From positions 609,768 to 673,767 of the forward strand of contig JBAZWG010000001.1 in assembly GCA_041660505.1 (NCBI GenBank): 64,000 nucleotides of DNA, given 5' to 3'. The translations under genes and the position numbers were made by a program. The notes beneath the pieces were generated by a model. The model was not told the origin of the DNA. It saw only the letters and a list, made by a program, of their open reading frames with translations, and ran no database searches. The stretch is from Minisyncoccota bacterium. Its GTDB lineage: Bacteria; Patescibacteriota; Minisyncoccia; Phycocordibacterales; JACRKE01. Below, one piece after another: positions 1,804 through 60,824 of the stretch. Positions within the stretch are counted from its first letter, which is position 1, and each line of letters opens with the position of its first letter.

Positions 1804-3053
1804 TGTCTGACATATTACAAAAAGCGAAGCACATTCACTTCGTCGGCATCGGCGGGATTGGCATTTCTGCAATTGCTCGGATGATGCTTGCTGAAGGGCG
1901 GATGGTGACGGGGTCAGATACGCATGCTTCGCATGTCACTGATGAGCTTTCTAAATTAGGGGCGGTTATCACTTTTGACCAGAGTACACAGACTATTCCT
2001 GCCACGACTAATCTGGTTATTTATACCGCGGCGATACCTGTTGCTGACGTGTCATTTTTTGAGGCGATGAAGGCACTGCCTGTTCCTTCACTTTCTTACC
2101 CCGAGGCACTGCGCGAAGTAACCAAAGAGAAGTTTACTATCGCAGTGGCCGGCACTCATGGCAAGACGACGACGACTGCCATGATTGCAAAGGTTATGAT
2201 GGATGCCGGGCTTGACCCCACTGTCATCGTCGGCTCTATACTCCTTGACCATAAAAGCAATTTTATCGCTGGTAAAAGCAAATATCTAGTAGTAGAAGCA
2301 GATGAATATCAGCGCGGATTCTTGAATCTCTCACCGCACATCTTGGTCATAACCAATATCGGTGTTGATCATTTGGATTATTATAAGGATTTAGCAGAAA
2401 TTCAAGCAACGTTTGACGAATTGGTTGCGCGGGTCACACCGGGTGGTCACGTGATAAAACCGGCAGACTGGTCGCTTGTTAATCCGCCAAAACAATTATT
2501 GATTCCCGGTTTGCATAATAGGCAGAACGCGCAGGCCGCGCTTGCCGTTGCGGAGGTATTAGGAATATCGCGAGAAAAGGCTGAAGCATCGCTCGCAAAC
2601 TTCCAAGGTACTTGGCGCAGATTTGAATATAAAGGCACGACCAAAGAAGGAGCATTGGTCTATGACGATTACGCACATAATCCAGACAAAGTCAGAGCGG
2701 CTCTGCAGGGTGCAAGAGAAAAGTTCCCGGATCGGAAAATCATTGCAGTATTCCAACCCCACTTGTATAGCCGAACCAAGTCGCTTCTCCCACAGTTCGC
2801 GGAAAGTTTTAACGATGCTGACGAAGTCTTTCTCGTTCCTATTTACGGCGCTCGCGAGTCTCTTGACCCGACGATTACGGCAGAGATGCTCGCAGAAGCA
2901 TTGCGCATACATCACGAGCGCGTGTTCGTCTTCCCTGATTTCGAAGCGGTGGAAACATATCTCCACACCATACTTACTCCCGAGTGCGTCGTGATGATGA
3001 TTGGTGCCGGAAGTATTACAGAGCTGGCGAGTAAACTTATTGCAGAAAAATAA
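1794..3053 (+). CDS. murC: UDP-N-acetylmuramate--L-alanine ligase
   Basis: HFVGIGGIGISAIA N-terminal motif; GTHGKTTTTAMI P-loop; RBS GGAGG upstream; 419 aa. Confidence 0.88.
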   Translation: MEVMSDILQKAKHIHFVGIGGIGISAIARMMLAEGRMVTGSDTHASHVTDELSKLGAVITFDQSTQTIPATTNLVIYTAAIPVADVSFFEAMKALPVPSLSYPEALREVTKEKFTIAVAGTHGKTTTTAMIAKVMMDAGLDPTVIVGSILLDHKSNFIAGKSKYLVVEADEYQRGFLNLSPHILVITNIGVDHLDYYKDLAEIQATFDELVARVTPGGHVIKPADWSLVNPPKQLLIPGLHNRQNAQAALAVAEVLGISREKAEASLANFQGTWRRFEYKGTTKEGALVYDDYAHNPDKVRAALQGAREKFPDRKIIAVFQPHLYSRTKSLLPQFAESFNDADEVFLVPIYGARESLDPTITAEMLAEALRIHHERVFVFPDFEAVETYLHTILTPECVVMMIGAGSITELASKLIAEK

Positions 3054-3054
3054 T

Positions 3055-3744
3055 ATGGCTACATTATATATAGTCGCCACGCCGATAGGCAATCTCGAAG
3101 ATATCACCCTTCGTGCTATCAGAATTCTAAAAGAAGTCGACACCATTGTCTGCGAAGATACGCGCGTGACGAAAAAGCTTTTAGAAAAATATCTGGACAA
3201 CCCAAAAAGAGTTTTGTCGTTCCATGCCCATAGTGATGAAGGTAAGGTGACAGAGCTTATTACATTACTCACTGAAGGCAAGTCGGTAGCACTCGTAACA
3301 GACGCGGGGACGCCTGGCGTGTCAGACCCGGGTTCACGGCTCGTCTCGGCTGTACGCAAAGAGTTTGGTGATGAAGTGCGTACAGAACCAATTCCCGGCC
3401 CATCGGCAATCACCACGGCACTTTCTGTCGCCGGAATCGAGGCTTCGGCATTTACTTTCCTCGGATTCTTGCCACACAAGAAAGGAAGAGAGACGTTATT
3501 TAACGAAATAAAAAATAGTGAACGCACGATGATATTTTATGAGTCATCTCACAGGATATTGAAGACCATAGAACGACTCGCCGAACTCTTGAGCGAGACG
3601 CGAAAAGTGGTAATTGCCCGCGAACTGACGAAAAAATTCGAAGAAATCATCTCCGGTACGCCGGCAGAGGTGCTCGCGAAGATGAAAGAGACTCCGGACA
3701 GAGAAAGGGGCGAGTTTGTCGTATTGGTCGGTCCTCTGGTATAA
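3055..3744 (+). CDS. rsmI: 16S rRNA 2'-O-methyltransferase RsmI (tetrapyrrole-methylase fold)
   Basis: MATLYIVATPIGNLEDITLRA...VCEDTR is the typical RsmI N-terminus; start moved to the ATG at 3055, 2 nt after the murC stop. Confidence 0.8.
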   Translation: MATLYIVATPIGNLEDITLRAIRILKEVDTIVCEDTRVTKKLLEKYLDNPKRVLSFHAHSDEGKVTELITLLTEGKSVALVTDAGTPGVSDPGSRLVSAVRKEFGDEVRTEPIPGPSAITTALSVAGIEASAFTFLGFLPHKKGRETLFNEIKNSERTMIFYESSHRILKTIERLAELLSETRKVVIARELTKKFEEIISGTPAEVLAKMKETPDRERGEFVVLVGPLV

Positions 3745-3764
3745 TGGCAGAATAATCACTTTGT

Positions 3765-3977
3765 ATGCATAAACTGAACCACATTTGGCAAAATAGACTC
3801 GTGACCATCCTCGGCTTCATTGTCCTTGTATTGCCACTTACCGGCTTCCCGCACAGTTGGACAGATAACTTTTATTTTTTACTCGGCTTAGCTATCGTCA
3901 TCATCTCATTCCAGCTCGGCAGATTCTTGGTCTATGGCGAAGAGCATGGCGAAAATAATGTTAAAGGGAAAAAATAA
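3765..3977 (+). CDS. small two-helix membrane protein (hypothetical)
   Basis: 70-aa ORF with two hydrophobic helices; overlaps the next gene start. Confidence 0.3.
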   Translation: MHKLNHIWQNRLVTILGFIVLVLPLTGFPHSWTDNFYFLLGLAIVIISFQLGRFLVYGEEHGENNVKGKK

Positions 3978-5322
3978 GATACTCGCACTCGCCTTAGCTG
4001 GGCTCTTTGCGGGCTTTGTTCTTATTGGGGGAGCTTCTCGCCTGCCTTTTATCAGCAAATATCTGCAAGCGAGCAGTGTTTACGTACGCGATACACCAGA
4101 GCCGATAGCAATAAAAGTTGCTTCTACAACGCAAGATCAAGCCAAGTTTGCCTTTATCGCGCCGGTAGTTGCATTACACGAGCCGCGGCCGGAAAAATTG
4201 AAGGCGATATATATATCAAGCTGGTCGGCCGGCTCGGCGACACAGATGAAGCGTCTCATCGGCCTTATAGATCGCACAGAAATAAATGCCGTCGTAATAG
4301 ATATTAAAGATGCGACAGGCGAGATCGCCTTCCATGTGAACGATCCGGCGCTTAAGGCGATGGGCACGGAATCCAATCGCATCGGCAATATAGATAGTCT
4401 TATCAAAGAGCTTCATGCTAAAAATATTTACGTCATCGGCCGAGTCTCGACCTTCCAAGACCCGCTCTTCGCCAAGATCCATCCAGAACTTGCGGTCATT
4501 CGCAAAAGCGATGGCAAATTTTGGCGCGATAGGAAAGGTTTAAGCTGGCTTGACGCCGGCGCCAAGAAGACTTGGGACTATATTATTGCAATAGCGAAAG
4601 AATCTTACTCAAGAGGCTTTGACGAAATTAATTTCGATTACATCCGCTTCCCCTCGGATGGGAATATGAAAGATATCGCCTACAGATTTTATGACGAGGC
4701 CAAACTTACTAAACCGGCGCAAATGAAATTATTTTATGAATATCTGCACAATGCGATGCAAGATAGCCCCACCCCCAACCCCTCCCCGAAGGAGAGGGGA
4801 GGAATATTTTCAAGCGACCAAGGTCTCTCCTCAAGGAGCGAAGCGGGAAGAGGTGAGTCCTTGGTCTCCACCGCCATCCCGCACTCCGCCGACCTCTTCG
4901 GTATGACCACAACCGCCGACGATGATATGGGTATCGGCCAGATGCTGACTGACGCGCTCCCATACTTCGACTATATTTGCCCGATGATATATCCATCGCA
5001 TTACGGCCCGGGCATCAACGGTTACAAAAAGCCGGCGCAATATCCGTACGAAATGGTGGCGTATGCCCTTGAAGGCGCTCTTGCTAAAGCCTCCTCGACC
5101 GACAAGTGGCAAGGTGAGTCCTTACCTAAAGGGGAAGGTCTCTCCTTGCCACCAAGCTATAAAAAAATCGTCCCATGGCTCCAAGACTTCGACATGGGCG
5201 CCACCTACGACGCAGGTATGGTAAGAGCCCAAATAAAAGCGACAGAAGACGCCGGCCTAACGAGCTGGTTACTGTGGGATCCTGCAAACAGATACACAGA
5301 GGGGGCTTTGCAGAAGGAATAG
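3934..5322 (+). CDS. putative glycoside-hydrolase-like TIM-barrel protein (GHL/DUF187-like), membrane anchored, with in-frame low-complexity insertions
   Basis: N-terminal TM anchor; motif GFDEINFDYIRFPSDG recalled from GHL-type putative glycosidases; contains the in-frame repeat that encodes SPTPNPSPKERGGIF. Confidence 0.5.
   Translation: MAKSMAKIMLKGKNKILALALAGLFAGFVLIGGASRLPFISKYLQASSVYVRDTPEPIAIKVASTTQDQAKFAFIAPVVALHEPRPEKLKAIYISSWSAGSATQMKRLIGLIDRTEINAVVIDIKDATGEIAFHVNDPALKAMGTESNRIGNIDSLIKELHAKNIYVIGRVSTFQDPLFAKIHPELAVIRKSDGKFWRDRKGLSWLDAGAKKTWDYIIAIAKESYSRGFDEINFDYIRFPSDGNMKDIAYRFYDEAKLTKPAQMKLFYEYLHNAMQDSPTPNPSPKERGGIFSSDQGLSSRSEAGRGESLVSTAIPHSADLFGMTTTADDDMGIGQMLTDALPYFDYICPMIYPSHYGPGINGYKKPAQYPYEMVAYALEGALAKASSTDKWQGESLPKGEGLSLPPSYKKIVPWLQDFDMGATYDAGMVRAQIKATEDAGLTSWLLWDPANRYTEGALQKE
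4771..4803. repeat. GC-rich palindromic element copy (CCCCTCCCCGAAGGAGAGGGG family), in-frame inside a CDS
   Basis: Same core as copies at 18383, 21061, 41002 and 41047; here it encodes PNPSPKERGG. Confidence 0.75.
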
Positions 5323-5405
5323 AAACGAAACAGCCAGCTCCCATGAAAAATCAGGAACTGGCTGTCCGGCTTGATAGGCAAAAAACTTGAGTCGACGGGA
5401 ATCTG

Positions 5406-6953
5406 TCAGACCGTCGACGGATACTTCTGCTCCACGTCTCGATCGTGGAGTTGTTTGATGATTTCTTCGATCGCCCCATACTGCTCGGGTGAGACCGTCG
5501 AGACGTTCGGGGTTATGATCAGGGGCTCCTCGCACGTTTCGTGGTAGCCCCAATCTGGGTGTACCCCGAACTTCTGCTTCAACGACCGGAAGGCCGCCAC
5601 CGTGAACTTCCCGATTATCCATCGGGCAATGTCCTCGATGTTCTGGTTCTTCCGAAAGCTGAACTGCGGGTACTGCGTCGTGAGCTCTAGGATGAAGTCG
5701 CCCGGCGTCCGTGTTCTCGTCTGCCCGAGCTGGCGAGCGCACGACCAGATCTTCGCAATCTTCAAGTTCTGGTCCCTTTTGCCGACCATTCGGCGAATGA
5801 GGACCAGATAGTAGATCCCGATCTGAACAACCCGATTGTACGTCGGGGTGCTGAACGACACACCCTTGTCTTCCGCCACCTGCTTCACCTCGCGGTGCAG
5901 GATCTTGTTCGTGTGGTAGACGTGCTTCCAGTAACGGAAGGTGTCCACCCCGAACATTGTCCTGGCCCGGCCTGCTGCGTGGATGATGCCGTTACAGCAG
6001 GAGAGGAATCCCTCCGGAGTGAAGAAGAGTGCGTGCTTCGTGAGAAGCGCGTGGTTCTGGTCGATATCCCTACAGTTCATGTAGTGGACGATGTCCCAGA
6101 TCTTGAGCTTTTCCACGCCGTCCGCGTCGACGCCGAGCTCGGCCGCAACCACCCAGATGTTCGTCACCTGGGGGCCGCAGACTATGTCCTTGTCGGTGAG
6201 GGGCAGTTCGGCCCAGAGGATTCGCTCAACGAGCCTGATGGAAATGGCTTTCAGTTCCTCTTCCGACAGCCACTCTGGTGGCGGAATAACCCTGAGCACG
6301 ATCAAGTAGACATAGATCTTCAAAAACAGCCTTGCGACTCCTCCTTTGTATCCAGTCTGCTTGACCTTGAAGCGGGCCGTTTCGTCCGATTCTCCCTTCT
6401 TGCGAGTGGGGAAGCGGATGTCGACCACCGCCGTTTCGATCGCCTCCCTCATCTCCTTGTTGGGGATCTGGGGGATGCTGTCGACGACCAGCTTGGTCGG
6501 TACCTCGCGGTACGTTCCAAACTTGATCTCCTCTTCTGGAACGACAACGACAGAGAGCCCCTTGACCTGCTCGATGACCTTCTTGGCGAAGGCCTCTTCA
6601 GGTTTGTCGGTGCTTTCCTCTTCTTCCTCCGAAGGCATCGCCGGCGTCTTCAGGCCGGAGTCGTGTGCCATTTCCCGAAGAAGGTTGAACGAGCAACTCA
6701 TGATCCTTCGGATCTCTTCCTGGATCTCGGTGGGGAGATTGCAGGCCCGCATATCCCGGAGGACAATGCGGATGAGACAGAGAAAGCGTGCGAACAACCC
6801 GAAGGTGTTCCGCGCCTTCTTCATCCCGTCAACGATGATCTCCTTGTACTCGTCAAACTTGTGGACGAGCTTCCAGCGCGTTTCGTCTGGATAGATGTAT
6901 CGTCGTTCCGAGTCCATTTCTACCTGATTAACCTCTGTTTCCGTGGTTCCCAT
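5406..6953 (-). CDS. hypothetical protein (515 aa), GC-rich
   Basis: Long ORF with codon-biased GC-rich composition and no recognised motif; GGGAAC hexamer repeats at its start codon. Confidence 0.6.
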   Translation of the reverse strand: MGTTETEVNQVEMDSERRYIYPDETRWKLVHKFDEYKEIIVDGMKKARNTFGLFARFLCLIRIVLRDMRACNLPTEIQEEIRRIMSCSFNLLREMAHDSGLKTPAMPSEEEEESTDKPEEAFAKKVIEQVKGLSVVVVPEEEIKFGTYREVPTKLVVDSIPQIPNKEMREAIETAVVDIRFPTRKKGESDETARFKVKQTGYKGGVARLFLKIYVYLIVLRVIPPPEWLSEEELKAISIRLVERILWAELPLTDKDIVCGPQVTNIWVVAAELGVDADGVEKLKIWDIVHYMNCRDIDQNHALLTKHALFFTPEGFLSCCNGIIHAAGRARTMFGVDTFRYWKHVYHTNKILHREVKQVAEDKGVSFSTPTYNRVVQIGIYYLVLIRRMVGKRDQNLKIAKIWSCARQLGQTRTRTPGDFILELTTQYPQFSFRKNQNIEDIARWIIGKFTVAAFRSLKQKFGVHPDWGYHETCEEPLIITPNVSTVSPEQYGAIEEIIKQLHDRDVEQKYPSTV

Positions 6954-7090
6954 GGTTCCCTCCTAGGTTCCCGGTTCCCGTTCCCGTATTCCTTTTTTGC
7001 CTATTTATTTGCCAAAGACCGATACACTGCCTATTTTTAGGCTAGGTTGACATGCTAGCATAAATTAGAGCTGTTTCCCAGAGAAATTAT

Positions 7091-7119
7091 TTGCATAATC
7101 GTCAAATTAGTGCTATTAT
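7091..7119 (+). promoter_or_regulatory. promoter TTGCAT-N17-TATTAT (extended TGc -10) for rnc
   Basis: -35 at 7091-7096 and -10 at 7114-7119 preceded by TGC; the RBS GGAAGG precedes the ATG at 7172. Confidence 0.5.
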
Positions 7120-7171
7120 ACAAAGTAATATTCGATTCCAGAAACGCTGTTTGAAAAAAGGAAGGTGATTA

Positions 7172-7870
7172 ATGTCCGAAACCAGAGAAGAGTTGCAGGT
7201 GCGGCTCGGCATCAAGTTCAATAATCCAGAGTTGCTGGCCGAGGCCCTTCGGCACAAGTCAGTCTCGCCACTCGGCAAGAAAAACAAACCGCAACCGCCG
7301 TATGAACGACTCGAATTCTTCGGCGACGCTGTGATTGACTACGTCGTGAGCAAGCGCCTTTTCCGGCGAAGCCCGCCACTGTCTCAAGGGCGCATGACCC
7401 AGGCGTTCACGAGCCTCGCTTCGCGTATGGCGCTTGGTGAGCTGGCAGAGGAAATAGACCTCTTCCCTCACATCGAGTTCTGCCCTGGCTTTGGCGACAA
7501 CATGTCTATCGAGTTGAGACATAATGTCGTCGGGGACGTCTATGAGGCTCTCGTCGGTGCCATCCACGAGGACCAGGGCTTCGAGACTGCTGAGAATTTC
7601 GTCGAACGCACGGCCATGGCGAAACTCGATGAACTGCTCGCCGGCAAGAACCTTCTCGACCACAAGAACCAGCTTTCTCGGTTCTTGCAGGGTCGTCATC
7701 ACAAGAGAGTCTACCCAGAGTACCAGCTCATCGGGCGTAAGTCTGATGGCGTCTACGTCTCTCAAGTGAGTCACGACGGCAAGAACCTCGGCCAAGGCGA
7801 AGGCAAGACCCAGACCGCCTCAGAGCTCAATGCCGCCAAGGAGGCGCTCGAGATTCTCAAGAAGCGGTAG
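7172..7870 (+). CDS. rnc: ribonuclease III
   Basis: RNase III signature ERLEFFGDAV; DVYEALVGAI; C-terminal dsRBD-like region. Confidence 0.85.
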   Translation: MSETREELQVRLGIKFNNPELLAEALRHKSVSPLGKKNKPQPPYERLEFFGDAVIDYVVSKRLFRRSPPLSQGRMTQAFTSLASRMALGELAEEIDLFPHIEFCPGFGDNMSIELRHNVVGDVYEALVGAIHEDQGFETAENFVERTAMAKLDELLAGKNLLDHKNQLSRFLQGRHHKRVYPEYQLIGRKSDGVYVSQVSHDGKNLGQGEGKTQTASELNAAKEALEILKKR

Positions 7871-7957
7871 CGGATTCACATCCGCTCGGAAATCTACACG
7901 ATTCGTTCGTGGGAAAACATCCGGGTGGGTGTTTTCTTTTTCCTATAAAAAAATTAT

Positions 7958-7986
7958 TTGCTGTTAAGTTTTGCCTGTGTTATAAT
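7958..7986 (+). promoter_or_regulatory. promoter TTGCTG-N17-TATAAT
   Basis: Consensus spacing; sits upstream of the small basic ORF, which has RBS GGAAGGAG. Confidence 0.5.
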
Positions 7987-8075
7987 CATGAACTTCGCAA
8001 ACGCGAGGTGCTCAAAGTACGGCACCCGCGTCCGCGGAGTGTTATGTTCTTTGAGCTGAATGGAAGGAGAATGCC

Positions 8076-25176: not shown

Positions 25177-26112
25177 TTGCTAGTATTATGTCTGATATTC
25201 ATGTCTTGGTTACTCATTGCCCTTATTGGGCCTATACTCTACGCTGTCGCTAATCATATCGATAAGCATGTTATCGAGCGATACTTGAAGGGAGGGGTCG
25301 CAGGCGCACTTATAATATTTTCATCCCTCTTCAGTATCGTGGCGTTGCCGGTGCTTACTTACTTCGAGCCGTCGGTACTTGATGTTACTCTTTTGCAGGG
25401 GGTTTACCTTGCTCTGAACGGCATGCTCGTCGTGTTTGCCTTCCTCGCTTATTTCTACGCGCTCACTTATGATGAAGCATCATATGTTGTCCCATGGTAT
25501 CAGACCATACCGATCTTCGGATTCATTCTCGGCTATTTTATATTAGGCGAGAAAATTTCCCAGACTCAAGCTCTGGCGTCCGCATTCATTCTCGCCGGTG
25601 CAATAATTCTATCGCTCGACTTCGGCGGCAAAAAGATGCACTTTAAACGCGAGGTTGCTTTCCTTATGCTCGGCGCCTCGCTACTTTATGCAATCAATGG
25701 AGTTGTATTTAAAGTTATTGCAACCGACGCCGGTTTCTGGGTCAGCGTATTCTGGGGGCTCGTGGGCAAAGTTATCCTTGGCTTCGCCTTCCTCGCCTTC
25801 ATTCCCTCATATCGCAATCAATATTTATACTTGTTACGACATAGCGGTTTGACAGTACTGGGCTTTAATTCTTTAAGCGAATTTCTCTCGATGATTGCAG
25901 AAGCGGCCATGCAATATGTGACCCTGCTTGTACCCGTCGGGATAGCGCTTCTTGCCAACTCGTTCCAGCCATTCTTCGTTCTTATTATCGGTAGTCTCAT
26001 CGCATTCTTCTGGCCGAGCAAAGAGGCCGAATCGCTCCGAGCCGGCAAAATGACCCAAAAAGTTGTAGGCATAGCCATTATGGTCCTGGGGAGCTATCTG
26101 ATCGGGGTATAA
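25177..26112 (+). CDS. DMT/EamA-like multi-TM transporter
   Basis: About 10 predicted TM helices in a two-fold repeat architecture. Confidence 0.5.
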   Translation: MLVLCLIFMSWLLIALIGPILYAVANHIDKHVIERYLKGGVAGALIIFSSLFSIVALPVLTYFEPSVLDVTLLQGVYLALNGMLVVFAFLAYFYALTYDEASYVVPWYQTIPIFGFILGYFILGEKISQTQALASAFILAGAIILSLDFGGKKMHFKREVAFLMLGASLLYAINGVVFKVIATDAGFWVSVFWGLVGKVILGFAFLAFIPSYRNQYLYLLRHSGLTVLGFNSLSEFLSMIAEAAMQYVTLLVPVGIALLANSFQPFFVLIIGSLIAFFWPSKEAESLRAGKMTQKVVGIAIMVLGSYLIGV

Positions 26113-26160
26113 AAGATTTTATTTGCGATGATTTTTAAATCCTAGTATACTGTCCTCACT

Positions 26161-26550
26161 ATGCATTTTGGCGAACATCTGATGATTGACGGTTATGGTG
26201 GCGACACGGAACTTTTGAATTCCGAGGCACTCGTCCGTAAAATTCTGACAGAATTACCAGTGCAGTTAGGGATGCAAACTTTGGCGGCACCCGTAATAAT
26301 TTCTGCTCCCGACAACGATAAAAAAGACCCCGGTGGCTGGAGCGGCTTCGTCGTTATTGCCGAGAGTCATGTGAGTATTCATACTTTTCCCAAGCGCGGT
26401 TTCGTCAGTATCGATGTGTACACCTGTAGGAATGGACTCGATATTGAAACTATCAAAGCCTATTTCACCGGCTCATTCGCGCTCGCCGAACTCGAGACCA
26501 ACTTCGTCTTACGCGGTAAGAAGTATCCGCAACAAAACATTCATGCATGA
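26161..26550 (+). CDS. speH: S-adenosylmethionine decarboxylase proenzyme (small pyruvoyl type)
   Basis: Self-cleavage motif AESHVSIHTFPK...SIDVYTCRNG matches ESHxxIHTWPE...FTCG; 129 aa. Confidence 0.78.
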   Translation: MHFGEHLMIDGYGGDTELLNSEALVRKILTELPVQLGMQTLAAPVIISAPDNDKKDPGGWSGFVVIAESHVSIHTFPKRGFVSIDVYTCRNGLDIETIKAYFTGSFALAELETNFVLRGKKYPQQNIHA

Positions 26551-27479
26551 CAGAGCTTCCAGCCTTTCCCGAATTTAAGCAGATAGAGCTGGCAGACCGA
26601 TCGTCGGTAGAAAAACTGACAGAAAAATTTCCGCCATATTCAGACTTTCATTTCTCCAGTTTGTATTCTTGGGACATCAACAAAAAAATGGGATTATCCG
26701 TGCTGAACGGCAATCTGGTGGTTTTGTTCAATGATTATATTTCCGGAAGTTTTTTCCTGACATTTATTGGAGATTCAAAGATTTCTGAAACAGCCTCCAT
26801 ACTGCTAGATTTTTCAAAACAGAATGGTTATGAAAGCTCCCTAAAACTTATTCCCGAAGAAATGGCAAAAGTATTGTCGGAAACAGGATTCTCTGTAGAG
26901 CCCGATGCCGGAGCTCATGATTACATCTATTCGATTGAACGTCTCGCAAACATGGAAGAATGGAGTAAGAGCACACAAAAGAAGCAGATCAGAAAATTTA
27001 TGGATACGAACCCTCAGTACTCCGCTCGGATATTACCCACTAAGGAATTAGACAAACGAGAATACCTCGAACTTTTTAAACAATGGGCAACCAACAAAAA
27101 TCTCCTTGATCACACGGAGTTGAACGAGTATAAAGCCTTTAGCCGGCTTCTGGCCGAAAACAATGGCGATGTTGAAATGTTGTCTATATATAGCGACGAG
27201 TCGTGTAAAAAAATGATCGGATTTACATCGTTTGAAACGATATCCGATGACTACGCCATAGCGCATTTTTCTAAAGCCGATATTAAGCATCACGCCGCAA
27301 TTTACTGCGTTTTGATATGGGAAGAGGCGAAATATCTTCAGAAAAAGGGTATAAAGCACTACAATTGGGAACAGGACCTGGATATACCTGGACTACGCAC
27401 TTTCAAAATGTCCTACAAGCCGGAATTTTTCTTAAAGCAGTACACGGTGAGTTTACCTGTGTTGTCGTCACAATCGTAG
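26547..27479 (+). CDS. hypothetical 310-aa protein translationally coupled to speH; AT-rich; not spermidine synthase
   Basis: ATGA overlap with the speH stop; no SpeE GGGDGG motif. Confidence 0.55.
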   Translation: MTELPAFPEFKQIELADRSSVEKLTEKFPPYSDFHFSSLYSWDINKKMGLSVLNGNLVVLFNDYISGSFFLTFIGDSKISETASILLDFSKQNGYESSLKLIPEEMAKVLSETGFSVEPDAGAHDYIYSIERLANMEEWSKSTQKKQIRKFMDTNPQYSARILPTKELDKREYLELFKQWATNKNLLDHTELNEYKAFSRLLAENNGDVEMLSIYSDESCKKMIGFTSFETISDDYAIAHFSKADIKHHAAIYCVLIWEEAKYLQKKGIKHYNWEQDLDIPGLRTFKMSYKPEFFLKQYTVSLPVLSSQS

Positions 27480-27504
27480 CCAACCTCGTATTAAATAGCC
27501 CCAA

Positions 27505-28617
27505 ATGATAATCATTGACCTGAAATTTCTTGTTAGAAAACGAGCGAATTTATTTTTTCTTATCGACAATCTCTCTTTTCCTATTGATTCAATGCACCGA
27601 GATTACAACCGTGAGTGGCTGGAGCTTTTCGGACAACTGTCGGATAGCGAGAATAATGCGCTCGAAAAATACAGGTTGTTTAAAAAGTCTATCTGGGACA
27701 GAGGGGGAGGCAAACTACTTACTCGTTTTGAATCTGCCTTTTATCAATTTTCAGAATTAGACCTGAGAGAAGAAAAATTATTACTAAATATTCTTACCGA
27801 AGAAGAGTCTGGCGAATTAGATAAAATCTTTAGCTATTTTCAAGGCAGGTTTGAACTAATGTGGGAAAATTATTGTCGGATTCTCTCGAATAATCTTATC
27901 TTTCTTGAAAACGATTTTGCTTCCGTTCAACAAGTGTTTAGTGAGACACTCTCTGTAATTGGCGGGTTGTATGGGGTTAATAATTTTAACGATCGAATCG
28001 AAGTCTTTCTTATGATGCGACCGGCCACCGGGTTTTCCGGAGGGAGAATGATTAGCCGAAAGCCCCCTATAGTAATGATCGAGAGCGGGATTTCTAAACC
28101 ACAAGATCTTGACCAAATAAATCATCTGCGGCTATTACTTTTTCATGAGCTCACTCACGCCTGTTTTGAAAACGAACGTTTTTTAAAATTTCTCGGTGAA
28201 TATATCGAAAAGAAAACTCCACTCACTCACTTTCTTGAGAAATACCCCTCAACAAAGACTCCAGCTTTGGCCACCCGCCGAGCAATGCGAGAAATGATTA
28301 TTAACTCCATTGAATATAGTACGTACGTTCGAGGTCGGCTTGAACAAGGTTGTGAGATAAATTCCAATAATGGGGAAACTATTCTGAACGAAATTCGAAA
28401 CAAAAAATCTTTTAAACTCGCGAAAGGCACCCAAGAGAAACGCTCTATTATTTTGACCAGCGGAGAGGATACTTACCGGTATGTCGCGTGGAAGCTAGAA
28501 GGAATTGTGCGACCATATCTTGATAATAAAAAGCGCATAGATGATGAATTCTTAGACGGTGTTTATGATGTCTTAAAAGCATTTCCGGATAACCTTCTTG
28601 ATGATTTGAAATTGTGA
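27505..28617 (+). CDS. hypothetical protein with HExxH motif (LLFHELTHACF), possible metallopeptidase
   Basis: Single HELTH motif; AT-rich; converges on the rSAM gene end. Confidence 0.5.
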   Translation: MIIIDLKFLVRKRANLFFLIDNLSFPIDSMHRDYNREWLELFGQLSDSENNALEKYRLFKKSIWDRGGGKLLTRFESAFYQFSELDLREEKLLLNILTEEESGELDKIFSYFQGRFELMWENYCRILSNNLIFLENDFASVQQVFSETLSVIGGLYGVNNFNDRIEVFLMMRPATGFSGGRMISRKPPIVMIESGISKPQDLDQINHLRLLLFHELTHACFENERFLKFLGEYIEKKTPLTHFLEKYPSTKTPALATRRAMREMIINSIEYSTYVRGRLEQGCEINSNNGETILNEIRNKKSFKLAKGTQEKRSIILTSGEDTYRYVAWKLEGIVRPYLDNKKRIDDEFLDGVYDVLKAFPDNLLDDLKL

Positions 28618-28674
28618 ACAAAAAGGCTGGCTCCCTAGAAACCCAGGAACCAGCCAAACTCCTCATCCTTTCTG

Positions 28675-29931
28675 TTAGTGATCAAGGATGTGTCTAAGGA
28701 GGTTCTTCGAAAATTCCCTGATTGCTTCGCATCGATAGCTCCTCTCTTTCCAGAAAGCTTCTGGTGAGACTTCGGCTTTATTGGCAGGGCAGTCTCCCTT
28801 ACAACCAAATTGAGCGAAGCAGTTCTGGCAGTCGGGAATACTCCTGACATTGAATTGCCGGAGGTGTCTGTATCGGTCTGCATCGAACACGAAAGCCTGT
28901 TGTTTTGGATCGTACTGTCCGAAACAAAATAGCAAAGCAGCGTCGTTTGCGCCCACACCGGCCATTCTATGGCAGGAAACAACTCGGCCGTCATAGGTGA
29001 TTGTGAAGTTCTTGCCAGCGGCTCCACAAAAAGCGCTACCCGTTGTCCGCCACGCCTGTGCAAGCGATGTTCTTATGCTAACGTTCAACGTTTTGGCAAC
29101 TTCAGACGCCTCAGTGAATTTCCCTAAGAATAGGGAGTCCACTGGTGGTTGAGCAAGCGGATTGACTTTCGCTCTCCCCATCGCGAAAAGTGGTTCGTAG
29201 GTTTGGACGCAACCAGGGAATCGTTCCCCGAAAAATCTCACCATTTCAGTCAGACGGTGAACGCTTGCTGCGGAAATGGTGGAACGGAACCTTAGTTTGT
29301 GCGGTGCAATCTGATAGATTTCCGTTGCCGCATCGAACACGCGGTCGAAACTCTTGCCCCGTTGCGCATCGTGGATATCCTTGGGCCCATCCACGGATAG
29401 TAGTATGTTGTCCATGTTCTCGGCGAGCCACCTGGCCTTTTGAGACGACATACAACCGTTGGTAGTGATTCCTGCCGAGCTCTCGAGACCCTGTTCTGAC
29501 GCTTGCGCGTGGAGGTACTGTACCGCTCCGACCAAGGTAGTCCAAGGTAGTGTCGGTTCACCGCCGAACATCCATGCACCGACCTTGCGCTTTCCTGAGT
29601 CTCTCGCAGATTTTATGAGATGGTCGACAGTAGCTCGGACAACCTCAGTCGGCATCGTTATGGTTTCTGTCGGCCGCGGGACGTAACCTCCAAAGCAGTA
29701 GATGCACCCAAGCTTGCACTGGTTAGTGAGCATCAAGGTTGCACCCGTAAAGAGGTAGTTCGGTTCTTCCGCTACCTCTTTTTGTATCGTCGAAGTCGGG
29801 GCGGTTACAAAATCTGGGATTGTTTCTGCAACATTCGCTTCGACCCGATACACCTTTCGCATTGTGGGAACGTAAATAATGACGCTATCTCCGTCTTGAA
29901 TCTTGAAGAGTCGGTGTTGAACAAGTTCCAT
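28675..29931 (-). CDS. radical SAM enzyme with C-terminal SPASM domain (RiPP peptide maturase-like)
   Basis: CxxxCxxC at LTNQCKLGCIYCFG; SPASM CX2CX5CX3C at CQNCFAQFGCKGDC plus flanking Cys; about 65-aa N-terminal extension; RBS ACGGAGG 6 nt before the ATG. Confidence 0.85.
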   Translation of the reverse strand: MELVQHRLFKIQDGDSVIIYVPTMRKVYRVEANVAETIPDFVTAPTSTIQKEVAEEPNYLFTGATLMLTNQCKLGCIYCFGGYVPRPTETITMPTEVVRATVDHLIKSARDSGKRKVGAWMFGGEPTLPWTTLVGAVQYLHAQASEQGLESSAGITTNGCMSSQKARWLAENMDNILLSVDGPKDIHDAQRGKSFDRVFDAATEIYQIAPHKLRFRSTISAASVHRLTEMVRFFGERFPGCVQTYEPLFAMGRAKVNPLAQPPVDSLFLGKFTEASEVAKTLNVSIRTSLAQAWRTTGSAFCGAAGKNFTITYDGRVVSCHRMAGVGANDAALLFCFGQYDPKQQAFVFDADRYRHLRQFNVRSIPDCQNCFAQFGCKGDCPANKAEVSPEAFWKERSYRCEAIREFSKNLLRHILDH

Positions 29932-29951
29932 GGATAACCTCCGTTATTATG

Positions 29952-29988
29952 GATCGAGGGTGGAAGCTATACGCTTCCACCCTCGATC
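29952..29988 (-). promoter_or_regulatory. perfect 16-bp stem-loop (GATCGAGGGTGGAAGC-TATA-CGCTTCCACCCTCGATC) between precursor ORF and maturase
   Basis: No U-run on the transcribed strand, so more likely an attenuator or processing/stability hairpin than a full terminator. Confidence 0.6.
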
Positions 29989-30014
29989 TTCTTCGAGTCA
30001 ACGACAGTTAGTTG

Positions 30015-30161
30015 TTACTCGCCGCAGCTGTCTCCATCTCCCCAGCAACCGTCTTGGTCCGAGTCGCATGCACTGCAACTTCGTGACGTGTCGGATGGAA
30101 GCGATGCGCTTGCGCAGGCAAGCCCTTCCAGCTGCTCCAGGGTCAAAGTCGGCTCTCTCAT
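30015..30161 (-). CDS. unannotated 48-aa Cys/Asp-rich RiPP precursor peptide candidate (ranthipeptide/SCIFF-like)
   Basis: Minus strand reads CGAAAGGAGGTGCCTATG...TAA. It translates to MREPTLTLEQLEGLACASASLPSDTSRSCSACDSDQDGCWGDGDSCGE. RBS AAGGAGG lies 5 nt upstream. Five Cys with nearby Asp/Ser/Thr at the C-terminus, helical acidic leader. Below the 60-aa ORF-track cut-off. Confidence 0.6.
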   Translation of the reverse strand: MREPTLTLEQLEGLACASASLPSDTSRSCSACDSDQDGCWGDGDSCGE

Positions 30162-30200
30162 AGGCACCTCCTTTCGTTGTCGAAGATCATTGTCAAGCTG

Positions 30201-30231
30201 ATTCTACCCCCCCCCTATTGCAATTTGTCAA
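30201..30231 (-). promoter_or_regulatory. promoter for the precursor peptide: TTGACA-N19-TAGAAT with a G9 (C9 on plus) tract in the spacer
   Basis: Reverse complement of plus 30201-30231; C9 run at 30207-30215; the 19-nt spacer is suboptimal; direct repeats TTGTCAAG at 30190-30197 and 30225-30232. Confidence 0.45.
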
Positions 30232-30419
30232 GTCCTTCGACTGAGCGAATTCCAAAGTGATTCCAAAACCTTAACTGTTAGACGGGCATGTACACCCGGA
30301 TACTTACTAACCTACGCCATTGGGGATATATAGTCGATTTACCAACTTCTCTCTGTTAGGTTCTTGTGATACGATTAGTGTATGGATAGAATCTCAAAAG
30401 TGTTACTGGGTGCGATAGT

Positions 30420-31373
30420 ATGCCTAGTTGTATCTTCGGTATTATATTCATTTTATTCGACAGTCGTTCGACAAGATTTTCAGGTGAGCGACACGACTCC
30501 CGCAACCGAATAATTACATATATTCCCATGCAATCAGATCAAAATCAATATTGGTCAATGACAGAAGGTGTCTTTAACTGTCTCATTGACACCGAGCGAA
30601 CCGAAGCCTTTCAAAAAGCTATACGAAATACGGTAAAAAGGGGTGATATTGTTGTCGATCTCGGGTCTGGCTCCGGGGTCATGGCTATGTTCGCCGCCGA
30701 CGCAGGTGCGGCAAAGGTATACGCCGTTGAAATAGATTTGCGCAATATAAAAACGCTCCGAGATACGTTTGCAAAAAATGGATATGCAGACGTGATTACA
30801 GTTATCGAGGGGGATGCCACAAGTGTTGTGTTGCCAGAAAAAGTTGATGTGATTATCGCAGAGATGGTTGCGACTGGCCTGATTGAAGAACTACAAATTC
30901 CAGCGATGAATAATGCGCTCATGTATAAAAAGGAGAGAACACGCGTTGTTCTAAGCCGAATTGATAACTATATTGATCTCGTTTTTAATAATCCTGTATT
31001 TTATAATCACACGTTCAATATCTTCCGTTACGAATATCCGGACATCGAGCAGCTACGATCAAATAGTTTTTCTGACAGGATTATATATTCTTCTATAGAC
31101 TTCAACCATGTATGCAGTGAGAGGAATGTGGATGCAACATACGAAGTCTCGATTACTAACGACGGGGTGATTAATGCGCTCAGAATAAGCACCGACACTT
31201 TTTTTGCTGACAATTCAACACTTGGTCCTACCTATGCCTACGCATATCCGTTAATTCTCCCCATCCCCGAATCCAAGGTTAAAAAAGGAGATATTTTTTC
31301 GGTAAAAGTGTCCTACGAGCTCTGCGGAGGTTTCGATGGGTTCTCATACTCGGTAACTAAAAAAAATGTTTAG
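30420..31373 (+). CDS. PRMT-like class I SAM-dependent methyltransferase
   Basis: DTERTEAFQKAI...DIVVDLGSGSGVMAMFAADAGAAKVYAVE (motif I and post-I) and VDVIIAEMV match the protein arginine methyltransferase family pattern; alternative start at 30528; stop overlaps the HK start. Confidence 0.6.
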   Translation: MPSCIFGIIFILFDSRSTRFSGERHDSRNRIITYIPMQSDQNQYWSMTEGVFNCLIDTERTEAFQKAIRNTVKRGDIVVDLGSGSGVMAMFAADAGAAKVYAVEIDLRNIKTLRDTFAKNGYADVITVIEGDATSVVLPEKVDVIIAEMVATGLIEELQIPAMNNALMYKKERTRVVLSRIDNYIDLVFNNPVFYNHTFNIFRYEYPDIEQLRSNSFSDRIIYSSIDFNHVCSERNVDATYEVSITNDGVINALRISTDTFFADNSTLGPTYAYAYPLILPIPESKVKKGDIFSVKVSYELCGGFDGFSYSVTKKNV

Positions 31374-33075
31374 CAACTACTATTGCCCGGGAAATCTCTC
31401 CGTGCTCGGGGCCTTTGATTTCAGTTATGCCCCCACGCTCATTTTTTATGCTTACATACCAATAATTCTTGTCTCGATATTTTTCGGATTATTGCTTATT
31501 TTCAGAGATAAGTTTTCTATTCAGGGAAAGCTTATCTTTCTGCTTTCACTCTTCTTTTCGTTTTGGAATCTTAATGTTATTGCCGAGTGGATAACCGTCC
31601 CCGTCAACCTAAATCATTTTTTTTGGCAACTAACCATGCTGTTTGAGATGCCGATTCCGCTACTCGCGATATACCTCACTCTTGTTTTTATCTACAAAAA
31701 GGATATTTCGAGCAAGTTAAAAATATTACTGACTATATTTTTCCTGCCGGTCCCACTGCTTCTGGCGACCGTCTATAATATCGGCGTATTTGATGTGCAA
31801 AATTGTCAGCCAGCAGTCGGTTGGTTAACGTATTACGTCTATGCGATCGAGATTTTTTCCATTCTATGGATTGTTATAGCCGCGTATAGAAAATACCAGA
31901 TCGAATCAAGCCCCTCCGAAAAAAAACAAATTCTTCTGATGGTTTCTGGTATATCACTATTTCTCCTTACCTTTTCTTTGTCGAATATTCTCGGCGAGTG
32001 GACTCAATTTTATCAAATCAACCTTATCGGTCCTATTGGTATGGTGGTGTTTCTGGCGCTCATGACTTACCTTATCGTCAAGTTCAAGACCTTCAATATC
32101 AAGCTTATTGGTACACAGGCTTTGGTGTGGGCGCTTATTATACTTATCGGGTCGGAGTTTTTCTTCATCCAAACAAACGTCAATAGAATTCTCACTGCCG
32201 TTACCCTTGTAATATCGGCTTGGATGGGTCTCATAATTGTGAGAAGCGTAAAGAAGGAAATTGAGGCTCGTGAGATTATCGAAGGTATGGCGAAGAAACT
32301 TGAGGGGGTTAACACCGAGCTCGAGGGTGCCAATGCCAAGCTCAAGGTACTTGACCAACAGAAGTCGGAGTTTGTCTCTATTGCTTCGCATCAGTTGCGG
32401 TCGCCGCTCACAGTCATTAAGGGCTATTTATCCATGATGATCGAGGGCGAGCCGGAGTTGGCCGACCTTAAGGCGGGGACTATCACGCCGAAGGGGGTGG
32501 AGGTCATGAACACGATGTTCCAATCGACCAACCGCTTGGCGCATATTATTGAAGACTTCTTGAACGTCTCGCGCATCGAGCAGGGCAAGATGAAATACGA
32601 GATGAGCGACTTCGACATCCGCCAGATGGCGCGGGAAGTGGTGGGTGAATTCCAAGCCGAGGTGGGCGAGAGGAAACTGACGCTTATCTGCACCGACAAG
32701 TCGCCAAACGCGAGCTATATGGTCTACGCCGACGCGGGCAAGCTCCGCCAAGTCATCGGCAATATTATTGACAACTCTATCAAGTACACGCCGCAGGGCG
32801 GGATCACTGTCTATCTTGAACGTCTGGCGGATAGTACTAGACTTTCGGTGAAGGACACCGGCATCGGCATCTCGGCCGAGAACCTTAAGAATTTGTTCCA
32901 GAAGTTCTCTCGCGCATCGAACGGCGGTAAGGTCAACGTGACAGGATCCGGCCTCGGCCTCTTCGTCGCTGTCGAAATTATGAAGGCGCATAAAGGCAAG
33001 CTGTGGGCAGAGTCGGATGGAGAAGGCAAGGGCTCAACTTTCGTGATAGAACTTCCAATTAAAAAACGGAATTAA
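31366..33075 (+). CDS. sensor histidine kinase with about 8-TM N-terminal membrane sensor domain; no response regulator adjacent
   Basis: H-box SIASHQLRSPLTVIKGY; HATPase_c N/G boxes (IIDNSIKYT, GSGLGLFVAVEIM); start overlaps the MTase stop. Confidence 0.85.
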   Translation: MFSNYYCPGNLSVLGAFDFSYAPTLIFYAYIPIILVSIFFGLLLIFRDKFSIQGKLIFLLSLFFSFWNLNVIAEWITVPVNLNHFFWQLTMLFEMPIPLLAIYLTLVFIYKKDISSKLKILLTIFFLPVPLLLATVYNIGVFDVQNCQPAVGWLTYYVYAIEIFSILWIVIAAYRKYQIESSPSEKKQILLMVSGISLFLLTFSLSNILGEWTQFYQINLIGPIGMVVFLALMTYLIVKFKTFNIKLIGTQALVWALIILIGSEFFFIQTNVNRILTAVTLVISAWMGLIIVRSVKKEIEAREIIEGMAKKLEGVNTELEGANAKLKVLDQQKSEFVSIASHQLRSPLTVIKGYLSMMIEGEPELADLKAGTITPKGVEVMNTMFQSTNRLAHIIEDFLNVSRIEQGKMKYEMSDFDIRQMAREVVGEFQAEVGERKLTLICTDKSPNASYMVYADAGKLRQVIGNIIDNSIKYTPQGGITVYLERLADSTRLSVKDTGIGISAENLKNLFQKFSRASNGGKVNVTGSGLGLFVAVEIMKAHKGKLWAESDGEGKGSTFVIELPIKKRN

Positions 33076-59699: not shown

Positions 59700-60824
59700 T
59701 TGCTCGAAAGGGGACTCATCATGGACTTTACGCTTCAGGAAAAAGATGGTCTGCCGGTTTTGCTCGCAGTCATGAAGATTGTCCGGATGGTTCTCTCGAT
59801 GCTCCCCGGAATTTTCGGGGAGTTCTTCATCGAGCCGGCAGGAGACAAGCGGGTAGAGAAGGACACGCCTGATATGTCCGTCGCCCAGTACGTCCCGGGT
59901 GTCGTCTATATCAAGGTTGTGGTCAGCCGACCCACGACTGGCAAGAGGCTTTACACCAGCCGGCTCTATTTGCCAGCCGGCATGGAAACCTATAATTTCC
60001 TTGCCGTATGCAAGGCGATTATCGACTTCATGTTGAAAGCCAAACCGCCACCACCAGACCTGTGCATTAAGAAGATCGAGGTGGAACCACTGCCTCTGAT
60101 GGCGGAGGTTAAACCTCCGACGGACGCGGAAGATCCAGAAGAGAAAGACCTTCTGGCTGGTCTAGAACATCCGGCCGACAAGGTCGAGATTCCGACTCCT
60201 GTCCCCGCGCCCGCAACCGAGCCAGCTCCGGTCATGATGGCGGAGGTTAAACCTCCGCCAATCGACCTCGGTATCCCGCTCGAGGAGATCGAGGCGCAGT
60301 TCGCGCCGGATATTCCCGAGATTGTCGTGGAGCCGGAGGTTGAGTTGCTGCCGATGTTAGAAGTGGCGGAGGAGCCGGCAGAGCCGAGGGCGCTCACACC
60401 GACGGAACGCCTTGCCCTAGTAGCACGAGGCGAAACGGAGAAGGCACAGGCGGCAACGCCTCCACCGCCAAAGCCGACGAAGGTTGACTTAGGCCTCCGG
60501 CTCAAGAGATGGTTCGGAAGCGAGGATAACTTCGCCTCCGTTTCTCTCATGATGGCGGCGCTCGTGAGGGAGGCGGGGTATTCCGACCACGTGCTGAAGT
60601 ATGGTGTGGAGGATTTCCCCAAGGCTTCCACCCTCGAGCGGCAGGAGATTGAAATCCTTGGCCGCAACGAGTGGAGTGCCGAAGTCGATCTCCACCTTCG
60701 GATTGGTGGGAAATTGGTCAACTTCAAGACGAAGCTCAACTTCGGCAAGCCCCAGCGCGGGGAGCGGATGTTTCGCAATCTGCAAACTGCGGCGCGCCGA
60801 CTCAACAAGTACTTTCGCCGATAG
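59700..60824 (+). CDS. hypothetical GC-rich Pro/Glu-rich protein
   Basis: 374-aa ORF with a central PEPEV low-complexity region; followed by the same hairpin family. Confidence 0.5.
   Translation: MLERGLIMDFTLQEKDGLPVLLAVMKIVRMVLSMLPGIFGEFFIEPAGDKRVEKDTPDMSVAQYVPGVVYIKVVVSRPTTGKRLYTSRLYLPAGMETYNFLAVCKAIIDFMLKAKPPPPDLCIKKIEVEPLPLMAEVKPPTDAEDPEEKDLLAGLEHPADKVEIPTPVPAPATEPAPVMMAEVKPPPIDLGIPLEEIEAQFAPDIPEIVVEPEVELLPMLEVAEEPAEPRALTPTERLALVARGETEKAQAATPPPPKPTKVDLGLRLKRWFGSEDNFASVSLMMAALVREAGYSDHVLKYGVEDFPKASTLERQEIEILGRNEWSAEVDLHLRIGGKLVNFKTKLNFGKPQRGERMFRNLQTAARRLNKYFRR

Follow-up and report, generated by a model that had tools for sequence, protein, structure and literature searches.

A putative ranthipeptide-like RiPP cassette with an unnamed HExxH partner protein in bacteria of the candidate phyla radiation

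We analyzed a 64,000-nucleotide stretch of contig JBAZWG010000001.1 (positions 609,768 to 673,767, forward strand) from the Minisyncoccota bacterium assembly GCA_041660505.1, hereafter the window, and found in it a three-gene cassette that is most likely dedicated to a peptide synthesized by the ribosome and modified post-translationally (RiPP). The genes encode a Cys/Asp-rich precursor peptide (30015-30161, minus strand), a radical S-adenosylmethionine (rSAM) enzyme with a SPASM domain (28675-29931, minus strand; 418 amino acids [aa]) and an HExxH protein (27505-28617, plus strand; 370 aa), and they occur almost only in the ultra-small bacteria of the candidate phyla radiation (CPR). That the rSAM enzyme acts on the 48-aa peptide within such a cassette is very probable. 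The fuller explanation, in which ranthipeptide-like thioethers join Cys to Asp or Glu and the HExxH protein removes the leader, is put forward with moderate confidence. The case is built on the genes, their motifs and folds, their co-conservation and the purifying selection acting on the cassette. A preliminary description of this DNA, made from the letters alone, had placed the small open reading frame (ORF), the hairpin that follows it and the rSAM gene correctly, as direct sequence reading confirmed; its account of a two-gene unit fails, since a conserved HExxH gene converges on the rSAM gene. Relatives were gathered from the contigs of homologues, from scans of genome and metagenome collections and by a peptide-profile search. 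Related loci carry L labels, and paired labels (L002/3, L004/5, L087/88, L167/8, L169/70, L171/2 and L174/5) stand for one lineage each.

The precursor ORF starts at an ATG at 30161, reads on the minus strand through a stop ending at 30015 and encodes 48 aa (MREPTLTLEQLEGLACASASLPSDTSRSCSACDSDQDGCWGDGDSCGE). Its Shine-Dalgarno sequence, AAAGGAGGTG (30165-30174, minus strand), places GGAGG 5 nucleotides (nt) from the ATG, in agreement with the near-consensus ribosome-binding site noted earlier; the other possible start, a GTG at 30167, falls within this sequence. With the border drawn from conservation, the leader covers approximately residues 1 to 28 (30078-30161) and carries a conserved T-L-x-L-E-x-L-E-x-L helix, and the core covers approximately residues 29 to 48 (30018-30077; CSACDSDQDGCWGDGDSCGE). 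Five Cys had been attributed to the core. The peptide does contain five (residues 16, 29, 32, 39 and 46), but C16 is unconserved and belongs to the leader by homology, whereas C32, C39 and C46 occupy conserved positions in the alignments. The peptide was rightly called unannotated: an exact-sequence look-up in a collection of approximately 15 billion proteins retrieved neither its 48-aa nor its 50-aa form.

The pairing of small ORF and rSAM gene is kept in every close relative inspected that has enough flanking DNA, homologous peptides of 48 to 76 aa being encoded no more than a few hundred bases from the homologous rSAM genes. Approximately 13 lineages bear such a precursor (the window, L001, L002/3, L004/5, L006, L007, L087/88, L089, L167/8, L169/70, L171/2, L173 and L174/5), and a profile built from the peptides recovered just 12 peptides of this kind among 5.8 billion proteins. 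All share an N-terminal L-x-x-L-E-x-L and a core that ends in (D)G-C-x-G-D-x-(D/S)-S-C-G-E. Because the contigs bearing the cassette span 30% to 61% GC, this shared motif does not simply reflect recent common ancestry of the DNA. L089 and L171 have rSAM enzymes that are 87% identical; between them, the 24-residue core has undergone 10 synonymous codon changes and a single non-synonymous one, and the N-terminal and linker parts of the leader vary freely. Core changes that are almost all synonymous identify the small ORF as a real protein-coding gene, and this comparison of codons argues for purifying selection on the precursor gene with the core as the selected part. A chance ORF, with the rSAM enzyme acting on something else, might be suspected from the shortness of the frame and its absence from the public annotation. 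Set against a strong Shine-Dalgarno sequence at ideal spacing, a motif-sharing ORF next to the rSAM gene across lineages so different in GC content and the 10:1 ratio of codon changes, that alternative is effectively refuted by the conservation of the ORF, and we consider it extremely improbable. Among known precursor families the peptide stands apart, with no NCBIfam match at E <= 1 to SCIFF or to any other precursor model. The only match in Pfam, to TMEM95 (E 0.19), is meaningless.

One relative preserves the footprint of a rearrangement within the cassette. In L001 (4923-5080 and 8281-8517), a near-duplicate of the precursor 5' end (SKQDRNRETKMPSAIELKKLESLAMGE) is fused in-frame to the front of the rSAM gene, and the complete precursor is located upstream of the HExxH gene.

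A short beta-rich N-terminal domain (residues 1 to 55) opens the rSAM enzyme, followed by the radical SAM core and by a SPASM domain with seven Cys. Both motifs named in the preliminary description are present, the SPASM motif in its full seven-Cys form. The ligands of the radical SAM cluster, C72-x3-C76-x2-C79 (29695-29718, minus strand), are invariant across 14 homologues, and the PF04055 domain scores 39.6 bits against a cut-off of 29.5. The SPASM domain (28729-29028, minus strand) reads C302-x12-G-x4-C320, C368-x2-C371-x5-C377-x3-C381 and C401, with invariant or nearly invariant Cys sufficient for two auxiliary clusters, and passes TIGR04085 (37.2 versus 27) and PF13186 (22.4 versus 21.5). 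With seven SPASM Cys in place of eight, one iron of an auxiliary cluster has no protein ligand, which is also the case in CteB. Substrate Cys binds this open site in CteB and PapB, as reported in part in PMC10177961. CteB (5WGG/5WHY) is also the closest solved structure (family profile E 2.5e-39; top Foldseek match, with a template modeling [TM] score of 0.71 to 0.73 across its full length, for an AlphaFold2 model with a predicted local distance difference test [pLDDT] value of 84), followed in the profile search by anSME, 8vpo (TigE), ChlB and SkfB. The N-terminal domain is strongly conserved in the alignment, beta-rich in the model and shorter than a canonical RiPP recognition element (RRE), and no Pfam model of PqqD or the RRE was matched at E <= 1; the more distant homologues P0015 and P0016 carry approximately 23 extra N-terminal residues.

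Close homologues of the enzyme (43% to 69% identity over most of the query) number approximately 14 among 5.8 billion clustered proteins, and the public record calls it simply a "radical SAM protein" of a Candidatus Paceibacterota metagenome-assembled genome (MAG), which bears out the attribution to the CPR. In a more distant group at approximately 30% identity (L008-L011, L045 and L090) a homologous precursor was sought and not found, L045 having different Cys-rich peptides downstream of its rSAM gene; the precursor family is therefore specific to the rSAM clade of at least 37% identity. A defense role is not supported by PADLOC, which gives just a generic viperin-like rSAM similarity.

Two relatives hold altered forms of the enzyme. 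In L007 the rSAM gene is split by a frameshift (3471-4869, as 3471-4640 and 4483-4869), an IS30-like transposase (HTH_38 and rve; 2352-3332) adjoins the precursor and a transglutaminase-core protein follows the HExxH gene; this cassette may be decaying or mobile, or may carry a sequencing error. P0014, from a 15-kb NCBI contig, fuses the N-terminal half of the rSAM enzyme (62% identity) to an unrelated C-terminal part bearing HELTH, and may represent a chimera, a locus in degradation or an error of assembly.

Which bond the enzyme makes is best approached from the precursor cores together with the ranking of family models. The 14 cores contain 4 to 7 Cys, 5 to 10 Asp plus Glu and almost no basic residues, and nearly every Cys is followed at a distance of 0 to 3 residues by Asp or Glu. 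C-x-x-D, usually as C-x-G-D, is found in all 14 precursors, and S-C-G-E (or S-C-S-E or S-C-G-D) in 10 of them. The Cys-x(n)-Asp/Glu pattern, recognized in the preliminary description as ranthipeptide-like, thus proves to be the most conserved part of the core. The enzyme matches SPASM peptide-maturase families throughout: PapB ranks first in NCBIfam (E 3e-31, nearly full-length), a nif11-like peptide maturase second, the SCIFF maturase third (6e-28) and QhpD fifth (1.9e-22), with a "ScfB-related orphan" also among the best matches and models of sactipeptide, cyclophane and sulfatase maturases lower. The preliminary description had named two sequence results that would overturn it, an rSAM enzyme outside the SPASM peptide-maturase families and a small ORF not kept beside homologous rSAM genes; neither occurred. 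Judged from its sequence, the rSAM protein looks like the PapB, SCIFF and QhpD enzymes and not like a member of any of these families.

Each of the three systems resembles the cassette in part. The PapB model (NF047865) is aligned over positions 4 to 319 of 330, and PapA, the freyrasin precursor, resembles the window peptide in that its leader is acidic and its core repeats a Cys-x(n)-Asp/Glu unit. The rSAM enzyme scores 108.9 bits against a PapB cut-off of 340, the two precursors are unrelated in sequence, and the six regular C-X3-D repeats of PapA contrast with C-x2-D, C-x-E and C-x0-D in the window; unlike the PapB/PapA system, the cassette has a conserved HExxH or M16 partner and occurs in CPR-like genomes only. 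The thioethers that PapB forms connect Cys with the side chain of Asp or Glu in C-X3-D/E motifs, and spacings of n = 0 to 6 are tolerated (PMC9413430; PMC10739248). With CteB/CteA and other SCIFF systems (TIGR03974) the cassette shares seven Cys in the SPASM domain and, directly upstream of the maturase gene, a gene for a short Cys-rich precursor. It differs in its score (97.9 bits versus a cut-off of 425), in a peptide that matches no SCIFF precursor model at the threshold given above and in an N-terminal domain approximately 35 residues shorter than the RRE region of CteB (query residue 56 aligns with CteB residue 91). Moreover, SCIFF maturation links Cys to Thr, whereas the conserved partners here are Asp and Glu. 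QhpD (TIGR03906), also an rSAM/SPASM enzyme, forms the same type of bond as PapB, between Cys and the side chains of Asp or Glu; the window enzyme reaches 79.6 bits against a cut-off of 453, and its locus has no dehydrogenase genes, whereas QhpC is the tryptophylquinone-bearing gamma-subunit of quinohemoprotein amine dehydrogenase. Taken together, the likeness to PapB and QhpD substrates and the ranking of the rSAM matches make three to four Cys-Asp/Glu rings the most economical prediction, and by this analogy non-alpha Cys-Asp/Glu thioethers would be the somewhat favored outcome. The earlier statement that the architecture is diagnostic of thioether RiPPs was too strong, because SPASM enzymes beside Cys-rich peptides also carry out other chemistries.

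The third gene was overlooked in the preliminary description, which reported no leader peptidase. It abuts the rSAM gene in 8 lineages (the window, L001, L002/3, L004/5, L007, L167/8, L173 and L174/5), as established by tblastn and contig look-ups, and in some of them the HExxH protein has diverged to approximately 23% to 28% identity with the rSAM enzyme still at 44%. In L001 the precursor lies upstream of the HExxH gene and not of the rSAM gene, which ties all three genes together. Close relatives of the protein number 9 among 5.8 billion proteins, and it matches no Pfam or NCBIfam model. Its HELTH motif (28144-28158; H214, E215 and H218) is followed by an invariant E263 (28291-28293). The AlphaFold2 model (pLDDT 89; predicted TM score 0.82) comprises an N-terminal helical bundle, a three-strand sheet (164-196), the HExxH helix (202-221) and further helices, with E263 within helix 253-270. 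Gluzincins are recognized by an HExxH motif and a Glu farther downstream on another helix, and in sequence and predicted fold the protein appears to conform to this signature. A profile search of 1.84 billion representatives returned 276 matches at E <= 1e-3, mostly of 300 to 340 aa; 48 diverse relatives all keep H218 and E263, and conservation is at least 90% at H214 and E215. Weak profile matches of these relatives go to zinc hydrolases only, namely SprT-like proteins (5/48), DUF5700, FtsH and Wss1 (E values of 0.002 to 0.04 for the last three) and a zinc metallohydrolase lipoprotein. Foldseek searches with the model gave nothing with E below 0.9.

The function of the HExxH protein is suggested by what replaces it. 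In four lineages without the HExxH gene (L087/88, L089, L169/70 and L171/2), the gene directly after the rSAM gene encodes a pitrilysin-type M16 peptidase whose HxxEH motif is intact. We call the cassettes with an HExxH partner type A and those with the M16 peptidase type B. With an M16 peptidase in the same slot of four sister lineages, the HExxH protein is probably the leader peptidase, an assignment that its motifs make us favor with some reserve; the report of no leader peptidase is therefore probably wrong. A 395-aa DUF4932-like protein of L087, tried as a distant HExxH homologue, was rejected (hhalign probability 0.1).

Further HExxH proteins and one other enzyme were seen at related loci. 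L119 groups a distant rSAM/SPASM enzyme (24% identity) with a Cys/Asp-rich peptide (5317-5484, minus strand; ...CDDDCSCNSTCSCDGECSCDGDCGCD...) and a 313-aa HExxH homologue (6589-7530) within 2983-7530, a second small HExxH protein lying at 7540-8061; the association of HExxH protein, rSAM enzyme and Cys/Asp-rich peptide thus reaches beyond the close family. In L174 a second, different HExxH protein with the motif HELIH (831-1682) is translationally coupled to the HExxH partner, and its homologues occur in other CPR rSAM loci (L096, L029 and L098). One type B cassette, L171, has an ATP-grasp gene of the MvdD-like, microviridin-type class after the M16 peptidase gene (3313-4305), and its product might further cross-link the Asp/Glu-rich core through ester or amide bonds.

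Elements that may control the cassette were read directly from the DNA. A putative precursor promoter (30201-30231, minus strand) combines a perfect -35 hexamer, TTGACA (30226-30231), and the -10 hexamer TAGAAT (30201-30206) across a 19-nt spacer, and had been missed by a promoter scan that allowed spacers of 16 to 18 nt. Promoter-like sequences near the consensus lie in the same place in L001 (TTGACA-17-TATAAT), L002 (TTGACA-16-TACAAT) and L168 (TTGACT-19-TATAAT); apart from the last, the relatives' spacers measure 16 to 17 nt and contain no homopolymer. The window spacer includes a run of nine G (30207-30215). Loss of one or two G would optimize the promoter, and the tract may act as a phase-variable switch or may stem from an error in assembling the homopolymer.

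The rSAM gene begins 83 bases after the precursor, with a GGAGG ribosome-binding site (29938-29942, minus strand) 6 nt upstream of its ATG at 29931. Between the two genes lies the perfect 16-bp hairpin of the preliminary description, borne out at 29952-29988 (minus strand) with arms at 29952-29967 and 29973-29988 that are 100% complementary around a 5-nt loop. Folding of the 96-nt stretch between the genes yields -43.2 kcal/mol (z = -7.0), and none of 200 shuffled sequences folds as well. In five other lineages (L002, L004, L006, L087 and L089) the gap between precursor and rSAM gene likewise holds a stem, unrelated in sequence and in two cases followed by a U-run; this supports a putative conserved role as attenuator or stabilizer. 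L007 has no stem there. From sequence, the hairpin is a putative partial terminator or transcript-stabilizing stem, as in many RiPP operons. Downstream of the rSAM stop, the 57-nt gap between the convergent rSAM and HExxH genes contains a terminator-like stem, GGCTGG...CCAGCC followed by TTTTT (28620-28655, minus strand), found by scan (inner stem 28629-28643) and by direct reading. One hairpin arm has a 15/16 match at 60624-60639 (minus strand), within an ORF at 59700-60824 (plus strand), which is expected by chance at approximately 1e-3 and has no obvious meaning; as this match is coding and has no second arm nearby, the hairpin does not belong to a repeat family.

Several observations weigh against a ranthipeptide-like cassette with an HExxH leader peptidase. 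The rSAM enzyme falls far below every curated family cut-off in NCBIfam, and because its scores lie so far under the equivalog cut-offs, the chemistry of the named enzymes cannot be transferred with confidence. SPASM enzymes as a group also make C-alpha thioethers and C-C and C-O links and epimerize residues. The HExxH gene is encoded on the strand opposite the rSAM gene, and its GC content is 4 to 13 points under that of the adjacent rSAM gene in 8/8 type A loci. L006 has neither an HExxH nor an M16 partner within reach. In a neighbor-joining tree the HExxH-partnered rSAM enzymes form one clade with the M16 type outside, so that the partner was exchanged once, and a single exchange is weaker evidence than repeated swaps. 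Two distant members of the HExxH family (L177, 4001-5023; L179, 4001-5011) have housekeeping genes as neighbors, following GrpE-DnaK-x-DnaJ in one case and lying between LigA and GatC in the other, which points to an unnamed family of putative metalloproteases with a wider spread than the cassette. Thus, only the subclade near the window protein is associated with the cassette, L119 adding one further distant case, and a general RiPP link of the whole family is rejected; the cassette seems to have drawn its subclade from a general family of protease-like proteins. Finally, no U-run follows the window hairpin.

Two alternatives concern what becomes of the peptide. A different rSAM modification, with sactipeptide C-alpha thioethers, C-C or C-O cross-links or epimerization and hence no ranthipeptide, would accommodate an enzyme that is under the cut-off of every ranthipeptide model, counts RumMC, StsB, SkfB, ChlB, YhhB and anSME among its matches and belongs to a group whose chemistry is not assignable from sequence alone. 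The makers of non-alpha thioethers (PapB, SCIFF maturase/CteB and QhpD) nevertheless outrank the sactipeptide and cyclophane enzymes, the sactipeptide models falling to 47.8 versus 720 for RumMC (NF035951) and 43.1 versus 625 for StsB (NF045574). The aromatic residues needed for cyclophanes are not conserved in the 14 precursors, and the most conserved core feature, an acidic residue 0 to 3 positions after Cys, matches PapB and QhpD substrates (PMC9413430); we therefore hold another modification to be unlikely. The peptide might instead be a scaffold from which a cofactor or metallophore is excised, following the logic of pyrroloquinoline quinone (PQQ) and mycofactocin, in which an rSAM/SPASM enzyme joins residues of a short peptide that a peptidase afterwards trims. 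The type B cassettes L087, L089, L169 and L171, with an M16 peptidase directly after the rSAM gene, do resemble PqqE with PqqF/G; in addition, no exporter is encoded, a short invariant C-x-G-D-x-D-S-C-G-E lies inside otherwise variable peptides, and a core rich in Cys and carboxylates suits metal binding. The window, in contrast, has an HExxH protein in place of the M16 peptidase and no equivalents of PqqB, PqqC or PqqD. Neither PqqB/C nor MftD equivalents are conserved with the cassette, whose neighbors differ at every locus, and purifying selection covers the whole core of approximately 20 residues and not one residue pair, all of which renders a scaffold quite improbable.

The other serious alternative concerns the HExxH protein, which could be a tailoring enzyme, for example an alpha-ketoglutarate/Fe(II) oxygenase that beta-hydroxylates core Asp as ChlH does after ChlB; a housekeeping protease would then see to any leader removal. 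HExxH proteins that are joined to rSAM/SPASM enzymes or lie next to them are known as alpha-ketoglutarate-dependent hydroxylases of Asp and His, with a fold reminiscent of zincins and a history of mis-annotation as peptidases (PMC12636437). The window core is unusually rich in conserved Asp, which also counts against the peptidase assignment, and the ChlB-ChlH system (IPR026337) likewise pairs an rSAM/SPASM maturase with a zincin-reminiscent HExxH protein (PMC12636437). The resemblance ends at several points: the window protein lies outside the alpha-ketoglutarate-HExxH sequence family (IPR026337), its gene is separate from and convergent with the rSAM gene, and the precursor has no conserved cyclophane aromatics. 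ChlB (9gm3) and ChlH (8s5f) are both among the matches, and in structural ranking zinc peptidases stand higher. At E <= 0.1 no NCBIfam model matches the window protein, nor does any match 48 family members at E <= 0.01. NCBIfam holds the TIGRFAM models and presumably includes TIGR04267, which we take to be the model of the HExxH oxygenases. Further evidence against an oxygenase comes from the weak sequence-profile matches to zinc hydrolases only, from the true M16 peptidase that fills the slot in the sister clade and from the invariant Glu approximately 45 residues after HExxH, which fits the gluzincin pattern. An O2-dependent enzyme would also be an odd fit for largely fermentative CPR bacteria. 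We regard a tailoring role as improbable, rank it well behind the leader peptidase, and leave the remaining probability to other or unassigned roles of the HExxH protein.

On the reading that we favor, a ranthipeptide-like cassette with an HExxH leader peptidase, maturation could proceed in four steps, in which we infer the type of cross-link, the cleavage step, the function of the hairpin and the role of the product. The precursor would be transcribed from its own promoter, and the hairpin would either pass only some transcripts on to the maturase gene or stabilize a short precursor mRNA, leaving the peptide in excess over the enzyme. The rSAM enzyme would then bind the amphipathic leader, probably through its short beta-rich N-terminal domain. 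As happens in CteB and PapB, an auxiliary [4Fe-4S] cluster would be bound at its open site by a core Cys thiolate, while the 5'-deoxyadenosyl radical takes a hydrogen from an acidic residue (Asp C-beta or Glu C-gamma); formation of the C-S bond would yield non-alpha thioether rings of the ranthipeptide type. The C-x-G-D, C-G-E and C-(x0-3)-D/E pairs could in this way give three to four small rings in a strongly acidic core of 20 residues. In the last step the zincin-like HExxH metallohydrolase would remove the leader, as the M16 peptidase would in the sister clade. The product may act as a signal or an antagonist, or may bind metals.

Other genes around the cassette do not seem to belong to it. 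An EamA transporter, a SAM decarboxylase, an LPG-synthase-C-like protein and a PrmA-like methyltransferase were considered as members and recur in no related locus. No exporter is conserved around the cassette, and the preliminary description stands on this point. Upstream of the HExxH gene (26161-27479), the SAM decarboxylase gene overlaps by 4 nt that of a 310-aa LPG_synthase_C protein, which corresponds to the aminoacyl-tRNA transferase-like C-terminal domain of MprF and, as the SAM decarboxylase, is unconserved in related cassettes. A region of approximately 6 kb (26000-32000) has 41% to 48% GC versus approximately 51% in the rest of the window, with the rSAM and precursor genes inside it at genome-typical GC.

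All identifiable hosts of the cassette are Patescibacteria/Parcubacteria. The genomes of this group are tiny, and few biosynthetic gene clusters (BGCs) or none are usually reported from them: one survey reported no BGCs in its Patescibacteria MAGs (PMC11613949), and another counted 9 BGCs in Patescibacteria (PMC8692599). No published account of this peptide family, or of the HExxH family, turned up in a literature search. In its logic, a leader and core peptide with an rSAM/SPASM maturase and a peptidase, the system is classical. New here are the precursor family, a maturase clade that is divergent and whose N-terminal domain is shortened, an HExxH partner without a named family and the restriction to CPR bacteria.

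For RiPP enzymology, the cassette offers a compact rSAM/SPASM enzyme with a shortened leader-binding domain and a tiny, motif-defined substrate (C-x-G-D and C-G-E) suited to tests of Cys-Asp/Glu thioether formation. It also offers a new HExxH family for which the choice between peptidase and oxygenase has been a live question since the discovery of the alpha-ketoglutarate-HExxH enzymes. A bolder view, possible and held only tentatively, is that of a mainly CPR peptide family in which a recruited HExxH enzyme, either a new leader peptidase or a metal-dependent tailoring enzyme, works on a hyper-acidic peptide stapled between Cys and Asp/Glu, which would serve these episymbionts of reduced genome in host interaction or metal capture. 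To conclude, the cassette is a well-supported lead that does not overturn current understanding: the kind of system is ordinary, and its host and its helper protein are unusual. Its maintenance under purifying selection in a dozen CPR lineages suggests that the peptide matters for the lifestyle of these bacteria.

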